From: an uncultured bacterium
GTDB taxonomy: Bacteria; Margulisbacteria; WOR-1; CAVSGV01
Reading direction: 5' to 3'
Length of the DNA: 32,000 nt
NCBI GenBank assembly: GCA_963699255.1
Contig: OY969425.1
Coordinates: 240,001 to 272,000 of the forward strand
The position numbers and the translations under genes are program-made. A model generated the notes under the pieces. It worked only from the letters and a program-made list of their open reading frames with translations, was not told the DNA's origin and made no database searches. Positions 1 to 8,854 of this stretch are shown one piece after another. The stretch's first letter is position 1. Each line of letters starts with the position of its first letter.

Positions 1-17
1 TTTTAAGGAGGAGATCC

Positions 18-500
18 ATGAAAAAGACAGCTGTGTTTTTGCTCGCATTGTTTTTTTTCGCGACGGCATATGCTCTGAGCAGTTTTCAGGCGGCATATAA
101 ACCCACGGATTTTCTGTTGAACGATCTGACAGGCAAGCCTATTTCTTCTGCGATATATAAAGGCAAGGCCGTGTTGATGGTGTTTTTCCGGGCGGAGTGT
201 CCCGGCTGCCAGCAGGAACTCCCTCAGATAGAGCAGCTTTACGAGAAATACAGATCAAAGAAATTCGATGTCCTGGGCGTGAACGTCAGGGAGGACGCTG
301 ATGTTGTCAGAGCTTTTGCCAGGGACAATAAACTGTCATTCACTGTTATTCTGGATGATGCAGGCGGCCTCGCCTCCGCATATCAGATAAAGTTCATTCC
401 CAGGATAGTGATCCTGGACAGGTCGGGGAAAATAAGATTCAGTTCTTATGGCATTCCCATGAAGGATATTGAGAAAGAGATAAAGAAAGTTCTAAAATGA
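18..500 (+). CDS. TlpA/ResA-family thiol:disulfide oxidoreductase (thioredoxin fold, secreted or lipid-anchored)
   Basis: Strong SD aaggagg 7 nt upstream. N-terminal signal-like MKKTAVFLLALFFFATAYA. Redox motif CPGC in FFRAECPGCQQELP. Translationally coupled (ATGA) to ccdA. Confidence 0.85.
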   Translation: MKKTAVFLLALFFFATAYALSSFQAAYKPTDFLLNDLTGKPISSAIYKGKAVLMVFFRAECPGCQQELPQIEQLYEKYRSKKFDVLGVNVREDADVVRAFARDNKLSFTVILDDAGGLASAYQIKFIPRIVILDRSGKIRFSSYGIPMKDIEKEIKKVLK

Positions 501-1216
501 ACTTTTTCGTTGCTTTTCTCGCGGGCCTTTTGACCTTTTTCAGCCCGTGCGTTTTTCCGCTGATACCGTCTTACATATCATATGTTACCGGATTTTCCGT
601 CGATGACCTCTCGCACGGCGACAAAAAGCTTTTGCTTAAGAGGTCCATATTCGGGTCTTTGAGCTTCATCCTGGGATTCTCGATCATATTTATCCTTATG
701 GGCATTTCCGCTTCTTTTGCCGGCAGCCTGATTTTTCAATTTCAAAATTACATAAGGGTCGTCGGCGGGGCCGTGATAGTATTCTTCGGATTAGCCATGA
801 CCGGATTATTGACAATAAGGTCCCTGGAAACAGAAAAAAGGTTCGGCATGAAGAACAAGCCCGTTGGCTATGCGGGCGCGTTGATATTAGGGATGACCTT
901 TGCGGCGGGGTGGGTGCCGTGCGTCGGGCCGATACTCTCTTCCATCCTGACCATTGCCGCTACTTCCGGCTCGAGATTTTATGGCGGGCTACTTCTGTTT
1001 TCATACTGTTTGGGGCTGGGAAGCCCGATACTCGTGTCCGCGGTAGCGTTTAATTATTTTCTGGCTCTCTACAGGCACATCGTAAAATACCTTAGATTGA
1101 TCTCGGTGGTCAGCGGAGTGCTCTTGATATTTATCGGCCTCCTCCTGATGACAGATAATCTTACCTGGCTTTCCGATCATCTGACCCGTCTTTTCATCTT
1201 CAGCGGAACACATTAA
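497..1216 (+). CDS. ccdA: Cytochrome c biogenesis / thiol-disulfide electron transporter CcdA (DsbD-family membrane protein)
   Basis: Polytopic membrane protein with the two conserved Cys-Pro contexts FSPCVFPLIPSY and GWVPCVGPIL. Paired with the TlpA-like gene. Confidence 0.85.
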   Translation: MNFFVAFLAGLLTFFSPCVFPLIPSYISYVTGFSVDDLSHGDKKLLLKRSIFGSLSFILGFSIIFILMGISASFAGSLIFQFQNYIRVVGGAVIVFFGLAMTGLLTIRSLETEKRFGMKNKPVGYAGALILGMTFAAGWVPCVGPILSSILTIAATSGSRFYGGLLLFSYCLGLGSPILVSAVAFNYFLALYRHIVKYLRLISVVSGVLLIFIGLLLMTDNLTWLSDHLTRLFIFSGTH

Positions 1217-1248
1217 AACACTGAGACAGAGCCACGCGTATCCGTGTA

Positions 1249-1277
1249 TTGTCTAATAGTTGAATTTCTAATATAAT
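1249..1277 (+). promoter_or_regulatory. Candidate sigma70-type promoter for the tRNA-Thr pair
   Basis: TTGTCT (1249-1254), 17-nt spacer, TATAAT (1272-1277). It lies about 13 nt before the first tRNA. Confidence 0.45.
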
Positions 1278-1289
1278 GTGGCAGATTCC

Positions 1290-1362
1290 GCCCGTGTAGC
1301 TCAGCTGGTAGAGCAGCTGATTCGTAATCAGCAGGTCGTCGGTTCAATTCCGACCGCGGGCT
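1290..1362 (+). tRNA. tRNA-Thr (anticodon CGU), CCA not encoded
   Basis: The cloverleaf folds by hand: acceptor GCCCGTG/CGCGGGC, D arm GCTC/GAGC, anticodon stem GCTGA/TCAGC with loop TTCGTAA, T arm GTCGG/CCGAC with loop TTCAATT. Confidence 0.9.
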
Positions 1363-1373
1363 TATGTTTTCGC

Positions 1374-1446
1374 GCCGCCGTAGCTCAGCTGGTAGAGCAA
1401 CTGATTTGTAATCAGTAGGTCGGTGGTTCAAATCCACTCGGCGGCT
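1374..1446 (+). tRNA. tRNA-Thr (anticodon UGU), CCA not encoded
   Basis: Acceptor GCCGCCG/CGGCGGC, D arm GCTC/GAGC, anticodon stem ACTGA/TCAGT with loop TTTGTAA, T arm GGTGG/CCACT with loop TTCAAAT. Confidence 0.9.
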
Positions 1447-1461
1447 TAGCAATTAAGGAAG

Positions 1462-1571
1462 AATTAACAATGACACAATTAACAACAATGTAGCCTCGCT
1501 TGCGCTCGGCATTTATTATTTTTATATAATAATTTCATTGTTGTTCATTGTTAATTGAGAAATTGTTAATT
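1462..1571. repeat. Nested AT-rich inverted repeats built from AATTAACAA / TTGTTAATT units
   Basis: aattaacaat (1462-1471) is the exact complement of attgttaatt (1562-1571). caattaacaacaatg (1476-1490) matches cattgttgttcattg (1536-1550) at 14/15 as reverse complement. aattaacaatga (1462-1473) also matches tcattgttaatt (1545-1556) at 12/12. Confidence 0.6.
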
Positions 1572-1572
1572 T

Positions 1573-2229
1573 ATGATTATAAAAACTATCCAGGTCGGAC
1601 AACTAAGGACAAACTGCTACATCGTAGCCCCGGATTGTGCCATACAGGCTTCCTCACGTCGAAGCGGGCGGGCGGGAGAGACAAGAGAAGCCGTGATAAT
1701 CGATCCCGGTGATGAAGCTGAAAAAATTATCGATGTCATGGATTCCGAGAATCTTAGGCCTATACTTATCGTGAACACGCACATTCATCCCGATCATGTG
1801 GGAGGGAATTTCAGGCTGGCCGAGAAATACGGCATCGTCGCGGCGGCCGGCAAGGACGGCATCGATTTTATCGAAGGGATCAAAAAATATTTTGAAGTGT
1901 TCTCGGGCTTGAGCATCGAAAGCCTCGGCATCAAAAGATTCCTGAAGGATGGAGAGATCATAAGGATCGGGGACATTGACTTGAAGGTCATGGAAACGCC
2001 GGGGCACTCAAAGGGCAGCTTGTGTTTGTACGCTGATGGAGTGCTGTTCAGCGGGGACACGCTTTTTGCCGGGACCTATGGAAGGACGGATATCCCCGGA
2101 GGAAGCGAAAATGATATCCAGGAGTCCATCGCCAGGCTTATGGAACTGCCGGATGATACGATGGTTTACCCGGGGCATGGAAGGATGACAACGATATCGG
2201 AAGAGAGAAAACTGTATGCCAAAGATTAG
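1573..2229 (+). CDS. MBL-fold metallo-hydrolase (glyoxalase II-like)
   Basis: HxHxDH motif THIHPDHVGG, later GHSKGS and GDTLF motifs, typical ~200-aa standalone beta-lactamase-fold layout. Carries an atypical 14-aa insert near the N-terminus (see findings). Confidence 0.85.
   Translation: MIIKTIQVGQLRTNCYIVAPDCAIQASSRRSGRAGETREAVIIDPGDEAEKIIDVMDSENLRPILIVNTHIHPDHVGGNFRLAEKYGIVAAAGKDGIDFIEGIKKYFEVFSGLSIESLGIKRFLKDGEIIRIGDIDLKVMETPGHSKGSLCLYADGVLFSGDTLFAGTYGRTDIPGGSENDIQESIARLMELPDDTMVYPGHGRMTTISEERKLYAKD
1636..1677 (-). other. 42-nt GC-rich in-frame insert (CAIQASSRRSGRAG) inside the MBL hydrolase; putative REP-like miniature element
   Basis: Read on the minus strand it is tcccgcccgcccgcttcgacgtgaggaagcctgtatggcaca. 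It shares both termini (tcccgcc...ggcaca) with the insert in queE. Internal stem gcttc/gaagc. Confidence 0.4.
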
Positions 2230-3151
2230 CCTGTTTTACGGTGATGAAGATTTTCTGCTCGACGAGGAAATAAAGCGGTTGAAGAGCGGGAGTTCGGAAT
2301 TTAACTTTGAACGGATCAATGGGGCAAAAAGCGGACCGGAGCAGATAATTTCCGTGCTTGCGACGTGTCCGTTACTGGGGGGAAGGCTGGTCGTCATCGA
2401 TTCTCTTAAGCTCGATGAGGAAGACGAAGAAAGATTGTTCGGCGTTTTGCGCAGCCTAAATGAGAGCGTGAAGGTCGTATTCGTATATTATGACGGCCTG
2501 GACAGAAGAAGGAAATTCTACAAGTTCATTGAAAAGATAGGGGACGTCAGGGAGTTTAAAAGGTTCACCGAATGGGAGCAGGATAAAGTGCTCGCATGGA
2601 TCGTTAACAGGGTGAATACATACGGGAAAAAGATCGGGAGCCACGCGGCCAATCTTCTGATCGAGATCGTCGGATTTAACCTGAGGATGCTTGACAAAGA
2701 GATAGAAAAGATCGCTACTTATATCGGGGACAGGGACCTTATAGAAGAGCAGGATGTGGCAAGCCTTTCCAGCGCCGGAGAAATCGACTCATTCGCTTTT
2801 TCGAACGCCATAAGGGACAAGAACACTCAGGAGGCGCTTAAATGCTTGAACAGATTATTCAAGGACAACCAGAATCCGCATATGTTGGTCGGGATGCTCG
2901 CAAAGCTTTACAGGATGCTCCTGCAGGTAAAATATCTGGAAGATAAGGGCTTTGGCCAGTACGACATAGCCAGAGAACTTAATGCAAAGCCTTTTTTTAT
3001 AAAAAAATGCGCGGAAAAGACCGGCAGATTCACCCTTAACGAACTGATAAATGACATAAAAATTCTCCAGCGCGCGGACCTGAAAATGAAAAGCGGCGCT
3101 TCTCCTAAGCTGACCCTTGAGATGCTGATCCCGGAACTGTGCAATGGATAA
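2216..3151 (+). CDS. holA: DNA polymerase III delta subunit
   Basis: About 310 aa. N-terminal YGDEDFLLDEE...LKS pattern and a C-terminal helical domain typical of HolA. Overlaps the upstream gene by 14 nt. Confidence 0.75.
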   Translation: MPKISLFYGDEDFLLDEEIKRLKSGSSEFNFERINGAKSGPEQIISVLATCPLLGGRLVVIDSLKLDEEDEERLFGVLRSLNESVKVVFVYYDGLDRRRKFYKFIEKIGDVREFKRFTEWEQDKVLAWIVNRVNTYGKKIGSHAANLLIEIVGFNLRMLDKEIEKIATYIGDRDLIEEQDVASLSSAGEIDSFAFSNAIRDKNTQEALKCLNRLFKDNQNPHMLVGMLAKLYRMLLQVKYLEDKGFGQYDIARELNAKPFFIKKCAEKTGRFTLNELINDIKILQRADLKMKSGASPKLTLEMLIPELCNG

Positions 3152-7234: not shown

Positions 7235-8070
7235 GCATAGGAAAGATATTACGGGAAAAAAGGGAGGAAAGGGGATTATCTGTTGCCGATGTTTTTGCGG
7301 AAATAAAGATAAATAAAAAATATATCCAGGCTCTGGAAGACGATAATTTTCTTCTTATACCCTCCCAGGTCTATGCGAAAGGTTTTTTGAAAGCTTATTC
7401 GGATTTTTTAGGTCTTGACACGAAAAACCTTGTTGGCGAACTGATAAATTATTATAAGAACAGGGAGGGTGAGAGAAAAACGATCTCATCAGCCAAAAAG
7501 ATGCCAAAGGTCATTTCTGTACCGGGCGTACCGAAGCTCCCGAAGATCATAGGTATCCCGGAACTTAAATTAAAGTTCAAATTTAACATGAAAATGGTGT
7601 ATATAGCTGTTATGTCTGTCCTGGCGCTTCTTGTCCTTTTCATATTGATATATGGTTTCATTTCATTCCACAAAAAGAGCGCGGTTTCGATCATGGTAAA
7701 TCCCCCCGCGGCCGGGAAAATTGAGAGACCCATGGTCGGGCCAAAAAAGCCCCCTGCAGTAAAAGCCCCGGCAGTAAAGGCTCCAGCTGTAACTGAAGAG
7801 AAAATGAACGAGGAAAGCTCGATCCCTGAAGGCAAAGTTGAAGTAAGGATCGATACGATAGGGCGGTCATGGATCTATGTCGCTTCCGGCACCAAAGTGC
7901 TATACAGTGAAACGCTCAATCCCGGGGCGAAACTAAGATTTGTCGGCAGGGAGATAACGGTGAAGGCGGGTAACGGCGGCGGCGTAAAAGTATATGTGAA
8001 CGGTATTTCCAAGGGGCTTATGGGAGAAGAAGGTGTGGCATCGGAAAAAACTTACAGGGCATCTGAGTGA
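7231..8070 (+). CDS. rodZ: RodZ-like cytoskeleton protein (XRE-type HTH, single TM, C-terminal DUF4115-like domain)
   Basis: N-terminal LREKREERGLSVADVFAEIKINKKYIQALE HTH, a central TM helix, a PAVKA repeat linker, and a C-terminal beta-rich domain ending in VKAGNGGGVKVYVNG. Confidence 0.7.
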   Translation: MSIGKILREKREERGLSVADVFAEIKINKKYIQALEDDNFLLIPSQVYAKGFLKAYSDFLGLDTKNLVGELINYYKNREGERKTISSAKKMPKVISVPGVPKLPKIIGIPELKLKFKFNMKMVYIAVMSVLALLVLFILIYGFISFHKKSAVSIMVNPPAAGKIERPMVGPKKPPAVKAPAVKAPAVTEEKMNEESSIPEGKVEVRIDTIGRSWIYVASGTKVLYSETLNPGAKLRFVGREITVKAGNGGGVKVYVNGISKGLMGEEGVASEKTYRASE

Positions 8071-8854
8071 GCACCACAGAAGCGCACATCTATGAGATCT
8101 TTTCCTCATTTCAAGGCGAAGGCCTCTACATAGGGGAACGGCAGATATTCATCAGATTTTTGATGTGCAACATGAGCTGCGCGTATTGCGACAGTCCGGA
8201 AAGCCTCACGCCCCAGAAAACGTTCAGGGTTGAAGAAACCCCCGGGAATAAAGATTTCAAGACATTCAACAATCCGGCGACAATAGATCAGATCTCCGGT
8301 TTTATCGATCAGCTAAAAGGGCAGAAAGGGCTTCATCACAGTGTTTCCATAACCGGAGGCGAGCCTCTTCTTCAGGTCGATTTTCTTAAGAATCTTCTCC
8401 CGAAGATCAAGGAAAAAGGCTTGAAAGCTTATCTTGAGACGAACGGCACCATGCCTGACAGGCTTTCTGAAATAATCGATCTTGTCGATATCGTGGCCAT
8501 GGATTTCAAGCTGCCGAGCATGACAGGGGAATCCGACAGGCTGCAGGAACACAAAAAAGCTCTCGAGGCGTCGACATCCCGCCTTCGCGAAGGCTTCGGC
8601 GGGCAGGCACAGATGTGTTCGTGAAGATCGTCATCGGAAAACAGACAAAGCCTGTTGAGATAGAGAACGCCTCAAAAGCCATATCGGAGGTAAACAGCGA
8701 GATACCGCTGGTGCTTCAGCCGGTCACGCCCGTAAGAGAAATAAAACACGGCCCCACCCCTGAGCAGATGTTTTCCTTTCACGCCATCGCCAAGAGGCAC
8801 TTGAACAGCGTGAGGGTCATTCCGCAGGTTCACAAGCTTCTCGGACAGCTCTGA
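8067..8854 (+). pseudogene. queE: 7-carboxy-7-deazaguanine synthase QueE (radical SAM), interrupted. N-terminal part 8067-8624 and C-terminal part from 8615 lie in different frames
   Basis: CNMSCAYC (CX3CX2C) and FQGEG motifs in part 1. Conserved QueE C-terminus VRVIPQVHKLLGQL in part 2. The frame changes across a 35-nt GC-rich segment. Confidence 0.8.
8577..8611 (+). other. 35-nt GC-rich palindromic insert (32-nt core plus repeated ACA) disrupting queE
   Basis: tcccgccttcgcgaaggcttcggcgggcaggc+aca. Perfect 14-nt palindrome 8581-8594, stem cccgcc/ggcggg. Flanked by ACA at 8574-8576 and 8609-8611. Removal restores ...EAST|DVFVKIV... Confidence 0.55.

Follow-up and report, generated by a model that had tools for sequence, protein, structure and literature searches.

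The gene for an MBL-fold hydrolase at positions 1573 to 2229 (plus strand) of the window contains a short GC-rich segment. The question raised by this locus is whether the segment is an insertion and, if so, whether it belongs to the same family of miniature elements as the insert in queE further downstream. The window is the whole 32,000-nt stretch of DNA analysed here (G000:C1:240001-272000), taken from a single-contig genome, G000, of 1.77 Mb with a GC content of 47.5%, the named homologues of which point to Margulisbacteria. In the initial annotation, the two inserts were regarded as members of one family lying in opposite orientations, with TCCCGCC and GGCACA as their common termini.

Host enzyme and position of the insert

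The 218-residue product of the gene matches PF00753 (Lactamase_B; E-value = 6e-26, 92 bits against a cut-off of 22.7). Its nearest solved structures are 2xf4 and 2zwr, which are YcbL/GloC-type, glyoxalase II-like hydrolases; 2xf4, a hydroxyacylglutathione hydrolase, is the best of these (E-value = 9e-30). The protein is alignable with these enzymes over the whole catalytic domain, including the HxHxDH metal-binding motif and the later His and Asp ligands, whereas the 14 residues between strands 1 and 2 are an addition to the YcbL/GloC-type framework, and the alignment with 2xf4 begins at residue 36, directly past them. His70, His72, Asp74, His75, His145, Asp162, and His202 are invariant in alignments of 16 and 55 sequences, and the catalytic motif columns are all intact in the alignments of relatives.

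The insert covers positions 1636 to 1677 of the plus strand (1635 to 1676 is equally possible), and the protein around it reads NCYIVAPD-CAIQASSRRSGRAG-ETREAVIIDPG, as initially described. In the 16-sequence alignment of species-level relatives (42 to 74% identity), all 15 other sequences have a clean gap of 14 columns at this site. Six residues (e.g., ASEKTR) separate the two strands in the insert-less relatives, which agrees with the spacing of about six residues that the initial annotation gives for homologues. A clean gap of 42 nt, the boundary of which is uncertain by 1 nt, is also observed in the DNA alignment with four genomes of the same family.

The AlphaFold2 model based on the 55-sequence alignment has a mean pLDDT of 91.8 and a pTM of 0.89. 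Residues 25 to 34 have pLDDT values below 50 and are flanked by the strands formed by residues 13 to 19 and 38 to 43. The insert is thus predicted to form a disordered surface loop between strands 1 and 2 that the enzyme tolerates.

The region upstream of the gene (positions 1217 to 1572, between the DsbD-like and MBL genes) contains two tRNA-Thr genes, at 1290 to 1362 (CGT) and 1374 to 1446 (TGT), and an AT-rich inverted repeat that encloses a short GC-rich core, at about 1455 to 1570. In the relatives L081, L077, and L079, this position is occupied by an RseC/MucC gene.

Composition and folding of the insert

The GC content of the insert is 0.667, against 0.491 for the remainder of the gene, and just 1.3% of the 42-nt windows of G000 reach this value. 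A weak 5-bp inverted repeat, gcttc-N8-gaagc, lies within it at positions 1648 to 1665 (gcttc at 1648 to 1652 and gaagc at 1661 to 1665). Both the GC-richness and the stem noted in the initial annotation are therefore present, but the stem does not make the insert a hairpin beyond expectation: the DNA folds at -4.1 kcal/mol (z = +1.1), and 182 of the 200 dinucleotide shuffles fold at least equally well. No stable palindrome of 20 to 40 nt was found in the G000 insert when its fold was compared with those of the shuffles. The version of the insert in the orthologue P0002 likewise folds no better than its shuffles (z = +0.5), and the L078 version, with a stem of CTTTCCTC and GAGAGGAAAG (z = -1.7), is the only somewhat stable one among those folded. 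The L079 version has a different stem, CTCTTC/GAAGAG, at about the same place. No Rfam family was found for this insert or for that of queE.

Distribution and age of the insert

Most metagenomic homologues lack the insert, as does the syntenic 20.7-kb contig L081 from a close relative. In a large protein collection, four metagenomic orthologues carry an insert at the same site, namely P0002 (90% identity), P0003 (81%), P0007 (77%), and P0005 (73%). It is 14 residues long in P0002 (peptide RAIQASSRRSGQAG), P0003, and P0005, and P0007 is N-terminally incomplete there. The 14 residues are thus lineage-specific, with a gap in the 15 species-level relatives and the insert in four closer orthologues. 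The insert DNA of P0002 and P0003 is clearly homologous to that of the window. These observations also bear on the suspicion that the insert is an assembly or binning artefact, such as a chimeric join or a misassembled repeat, for which nothing speaks except its odd composition. The four contigs with an insert at the same site were assembled independently and come from different JGI metagenome samples, the insert keeps the reading frame, and all 19 other genes in the 17-kb region of synteny with L081 are free of frame damage. We regard an artefact as highly improbable.

The composition of the insert changes with divergence from the window: its GC content is 0.67 to 0.69 in G000 and P0002, 0.60 in P0003, and 0.47 in P0007, against a gene background of 0.49. 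This fall fits a foreign GC-rich piece that would have relaxed to the composition of its host. The residues of the insert are less conserved than its flanks, and Arg, Lys, Ser, and Gly are abundant in every version. A loop co-opted for a function, for example, as a basic flexible arm in contact with a partner or a nucleic acid, would account for this residue composition and for a length fixed at 14 codons, since all complete versions have 14 residues despite strong drift. On the other hand, the conservation of the insert is low relative to its flanks, the region is predicted to be disordered, and the close relatives P0004, from the organism of L081, and P0006, which lack the insert, have this gene at an unchanged place in the operon; we consider co-option very unlikely.

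P0004 and P0006 fall within the same group of the MBL tree as the insert-bearing orthologues, and the branching order within this clade does not separate a single gain from a gain followed by loss. A single clade of insert-bearers was not rejected by the AU test (p = 0.25), and a single gain of the insert would be allowed by the tree. The neighbouring genes disagree on the nearest lineage when positions 1 to 3151 of the window are compared with L078 and L081: AhpC and DsbD are nearer to L078, and HolA and queE are nearer to L081. These conflicting relationships suggest recombination among these Margulisbacteria lineages, and since such exchange of alleles with and without the insert would suffice to produce the observed pattern, no excision is needed. 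On the basis of sequence comparison, the insert is best described as a genuine, lineage-specific, old, and vertically inherited in-frame insertion. It can serve as a dated example of a short GC-rich insertion in a housekeeping-type enzyme, kept down to 73% protein identity with a constant length and a relaxing sequence.

The queE insert and its hairpin family

The gene queE, which encodes 7-carboxy-7-deazaguanine synthase, lies at positions 8067 to 8854 (plus strand) in two frames, 8067 to 8624 and 8612 to 8854, with hits to Radical_SAM and Fer4_12. Both halves are 94% identical to the intact 252-residue orthologue P0122. The frame is broken by an element of the form CCCGCC-N14-GGCGGG-CAGG at positions 8578 to 8607 (plus strand), which gives a net insertion of 29 nt; a net gap of 29 nt is found at this site in four relatives and in L081. 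The empty site of L081 reads ACATC-AAAG-GATGTG, compared with ACATC-(29 nt)-CACA-GATGTG in the window.

The 30-mer of queE, CCCGCC-TTCGCGAAGGCTTC-GGCGGG-CAGG, has five more copies in G000 with 26 to 28 of the 30 nt identical (at most four mismatches), and the family profile finds seven canonical copies and two variants in this genome. The family is described by the pattern YCCGCC-N14-GGCGGR-CA[AG]G, with the consensus CCCGCC...GGCGGGCAGG and the conserved loop TTCGCNAARGCTTC. Compared with relatives, two copies are exact 10-codon inserts, SAFAKASADR in LpxC and PAYAKASAGR in a BioA-like class-III aminotransferase. One further copy makes up part of the MazG C-terminal tail, one is located in a YdjM gene but on the opposite strand, and the others are intergenic. 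The queE insert is, from these matches, a true member of a dispersed 30-nt hairpin family. No paper containing the sequence of the family or its peptide translations was found in a literature search.

The 24-nt core of the family occurs in 14 of the 61 genomes of the class, where the reversed control pattern gave no match, and also in more than 120 contigs from Alphaproteobacteria, Acidobacteriota, Patescibacteria, Bacteroidota, the PVC group, and others. Among 122 copies from different phyla, the closing pair of the stem covaries: it is T..A in 69 and C..G in 41, and in 6 copies the two bases do not pair. In 53 of these copies, the core is followed by CAAG or CAGG. The tetranucleotides with the highest enrichment behind GC-rich 6-bp hairpins in G000 are CAGG (2.4-fold) and CAAG (2.3-fold). 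Relative to 678 kb of the related genome G002, G000 has 63 specific insertions of at least 6 residues, 20 of which have a GC content of at least 0.62; these 20 represent about 15 distinct loci, and many of them are modules consisting of a hairpin and CA[AG]G. G002 shows few such insertions. G000 has clearly been colonised by miniature GC-rich hairpins, which are found in frame within conserved genes. To this extent, the view put forward in the initial annotation is upheld.

The frameshift in queE could be a homopolymer error, with CCC read for CCCC, although the 19 other syntenic genes all have intact frames. Ribosomal bypass of the element, between two ACA codons across a gap of 32 nt, was also considered; the take-off codon is followed by neither a stop nor a rare codon, and the element itself is one of the copies of a dispersed repeat. 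We consider this explanation very improbable.

An element also occupies the same queE site (8560 to 8620 of the window) in another lineage: L080:1506-2306 (JGI contig Ga0643848_0125013, protein P0123) has a 42-nt in-frame element, the ends of which, CCCGCC and GGCGGGCAGG, are identical to those of the window and the 26-nt interior of which is unrelated. This pair suggests that either the site has been targeted repeatedly or the interior of the element has been replaced. In the aminotransferase and MazG, the 30-nt element is placed between GAGATG(C/A)GA and GATG. A motif of the GAGATGCGA type (peptide EMRDxRCEM) is also found in the aminotransferases of relatives and in other G000-specific inserts, and it may be a preferred target sequence or a second type of repeat; the loci of the element and the motif are G000:C1:694363-695802, 698834-699649, and 1489199-1490092.

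G000 further contains a perfect inverted duplication of 1292 bp, at G000:C1:1054069-1055360 and 1093516-1094808, 39 kb apart. It has no ORF of more than 95 residues and is dense with hairpin and CA[AG]G modules, including composite forms, and it may delimit a large segment that is mobile or invertible, or serve as a reservoir for these elements.

The genome has one gene for a Y1 transposase (IS200/RAYT-like, PF01797), at positions 1290815 to 1291165 (L181:1468-1956, minus strand). It is flanked by GGAACC...GGTTCC hairpins that are unrelated to the CCCGCC family, and so the latter cannot be tied to a mobilising enzyme. Both hairpins of the GGAACC type also occur together in the N-terminal part of the ORF at 661188 to 663263. 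In its arrangement, the Y1 locus resembles a classical REPtron and is separate from the CCCGCC family.

Relationship between the two inserts

The proposal that the MBL insert is a member of the queE family in the opposite orientation relied on its ends. The literal matches of 7 and 6 nt (TCCCGCC and GGCACA) do exist, twice in the window against an expected number of 0.01, and when the queE element is reverse-complemented and aligned locally with the MBL insert, the uncorrected p is 0.025. However, the pattern was built from the same two sequences that it matches. When G000 was searched for TCCCGCC-N20-35-GGCACA, six matches were obtained against roughly three expected, and the other four are unrelated sequences. 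The ends of the family proper are CCCGCC and GGGCAGG; the T before and the CACA after the queE element belong to the host, as seen in the empty site of the L081 orthologue, which has 94% identity. At the MBL site, the first codon of the insert encodes Arg in P0002, P0003, and P0005 (P0007 is incomplete there), and in the DNA of P0002 and P0003 it is CGT, compared with TGT in the window. With CGT in the orthologues, the TGT of the window, which makes the GGCACA end, is probably a derived single-base coincidence.

The features that define the family were then compared with the insert itself. On the plus strand, the 3' end of the MBL insert carries GGGCGGGCGGG, a single GGCGGG-like arm for which there is no CCCGCC partner (CCGCC arm) upstream, and the insert thus has no terminal inverted repeat. 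It has only the 7-mer AGGCTTC in common with the loop TTCGCNAARGCTTC. The CA[AG]G tag is absent from the G000 insert, which has GCGGGCGGG. The P0002 version has GCGGGCAGGCG, which is identical to the 3' end of the family copies and is the one suggestive, if weak, resemblance to them; it does not stand directly behind a stem, and its orientation is that of the gene, opposite to the one first proposed. The family profile (nhmmer, six copies) does not report the MBL insert at E-values up to 100.

Against 59 elements consisting of a hairpin and CA[AG]G, the best local score of the G000 insert is at chance level (p = 0.30 with shuffles and p = 0.36 with GC-matched genome segments). In the same controlled test, P0002 is marginal (p = 0.017 and 0.05) and P0003 is not significant. 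The pairwise tests of the MBL insert have uncorrected p values of 0.01 to 0.04 in both orientations alike, none of which survives correction. Three partial resemblances were rejected as post hoc and at chance in the controlled test: TGCCAT-N3-GGCTTC, common to the MBL insert and the 42-nt modules of two YdjM paralogues; the 9-mer GCCATACAG, common to the insert and the element at genome position 1054622; and three collinear blocks common to the insert and the MazG copy.

The MBL insert has no second copy in G000 detectable by BLAST, which returned only chance matches of 11 to 14 nt, and a profile of three versions of the insert found no further copy in G000 or in any orthologous or relative locus searched. 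The hairpin core GGCTTCCTCNCGTCGAAGC was matched 85 times in a metagenome scan; every match belongs to an unrelated high-GC genome, and the flanks of the insert accompany none of them. Membership of the MBL insert in the queE-type CCCGCC...GGCGGGCAGG family is not demonstrable from these comparisons, and the similarity between the ends of the two inserts appears to be coincidental. Opposite-orientation membership, as first proposed, is unlikely.

Origin of the MBL insert

The main rival to the reading that we prefer is an ordinary indel, in which the GC-richness would be incidental. Replication slippage, recombination with an allele that had diverged, or the repair of a break by new synthesis would then have lengthened the loop. 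It agrees with an insert that is single-copy, has no significant hairpin, and has no significant likeness to any repeat class, and indels that are not GC-rich do occur in neighbouring genes (e.g., 8 residues in Alr and 7 in DnaX). However, no duplicated flanking sequence was seen within the insert by inspection, its GC content is rare among the 42-nt windows of G000, and the decay of that content with divergence is as expected for foreign DNA. The genome also has about 15 other GC-rich gene inserts, many of them recognisable hairpin modules, and 42 nt is also the length of the in-frame hairpin element in queE of L080. The ordinary indel is, in our judgement, a possible explanation with the odds against it.

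A further reading would place both inserts in one superfamily of 30- to 42-nt elements, each composed of a hairpin and CA[AG]G, that move between phyla and into coding sequence. The MBL insert would then be an ancient, decayed 42-nt copy of the L080 length class in the orientation of the gene. We hold this to be rather unlikely; if true, it would mean that such elements can persist in the long term as protein loops.

Our preferred reading, to which we give a probability of roughly 0.55, is that the MBL insert is an old, inherited insertion in the loop of the first β-hairpin, which is probably a decayed REP-like piece and not a demonstrable member of the queE family. The insertion probably occurred in the ancestor of a small Margulisbacteria clade, in the first β-hairpin loop of its YcbL/GloC-type hydrolase, and the length has stayed at 14 codons while the sequence drifted, leaving a tolerated passenger peptide in a predicted disordered surface loop. 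The source would most likely be small GC-rich REP-like DNA of the kind accepted inside genes of this lineage, which would later have decayed past recognition. For the element origin taken by itself, the odds are about even, as it derives from the composition of the insert and from events elsewhere in the genome, not from the insert itself. It is favoured because the genome accepts such pieces, because the insert matches their composition and size range, and because its GC content decays with age.

Significance and comparison with known systems

Taken alone, the MBL insert illustrates, on a small scale, how a protein can tolerate extra residues in a surface loop. Of greater interest is a 30-nt hairpin that is nearly unchanged across many phyla and contributes exactly ten codons to essential genes (LpxC and the BioA-like aminotransferase), together with the presence of hairpin elements at the same queE site in two lineages. 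For annotation, inserts of this kind account for odd loops, split genes, and spurious peptides of the FAKASAGR type in metagenome-assembled genomes.

Rickettsia palindromic elements (RPEs) are selfish repeats of about 100 to 150 nt that occur in frame inside the genes of conserved proteins, mostly at the protein surface, where they are tolerated; they form multi-copy families that are not known outside Rickettsia. The MBL insert resembles them in lying in frame in a conserved gene and in its predicted placement in a disordered surface loop, but it is 42 nt long, single-copy, and found in Margulisbacteria. The GC clusters of yeast mitochondria are short (about 30 to 50 nt), GC-rich, palindromic mobile pieces in an AT-richer genome, some of which are in frame in coding sequence. 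By description, they differ from the MBL insert in being organellar and in belonging to other sequence families.

The closest parallel is provided by the intragenic REPs, which are GC-rich stem-loops of 20 to 40 bp, tagged at one end with the tetranucleotide GTAG or CGTC (Di Nocera et al. 2013, PMC3733652). They are mostly intergenic, and in several species they are found inside known genes, to which they add a few residues (PMC3733652). Small REP-like elements inside genes are thus an already described kind, and the statement that elements of this class could not be assigned to any described family was too strong. The MBL insert itself is unlike these REPs: it has no tag directly behind a stem, no intact palindrome, and no further copies, and neither GTAG nor CGTC was seen in it by inspection. 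The queE-type family differs from them in that its tag is neither GTAG nor CGTC and in that the sole Y1 gene of the genome is flanked by hairpins of the GGAACC type. In its architecture, however, the queE-type family corresponds well to the intragenic REPs, with a stem of 6 to 7 bp, a loop, and a tag that reads CA[AG]G on one strand and C[CT]TG on the other, and, like them, it is found in frame inside known genes, here LpxC and the BioA-like aminotransferase.
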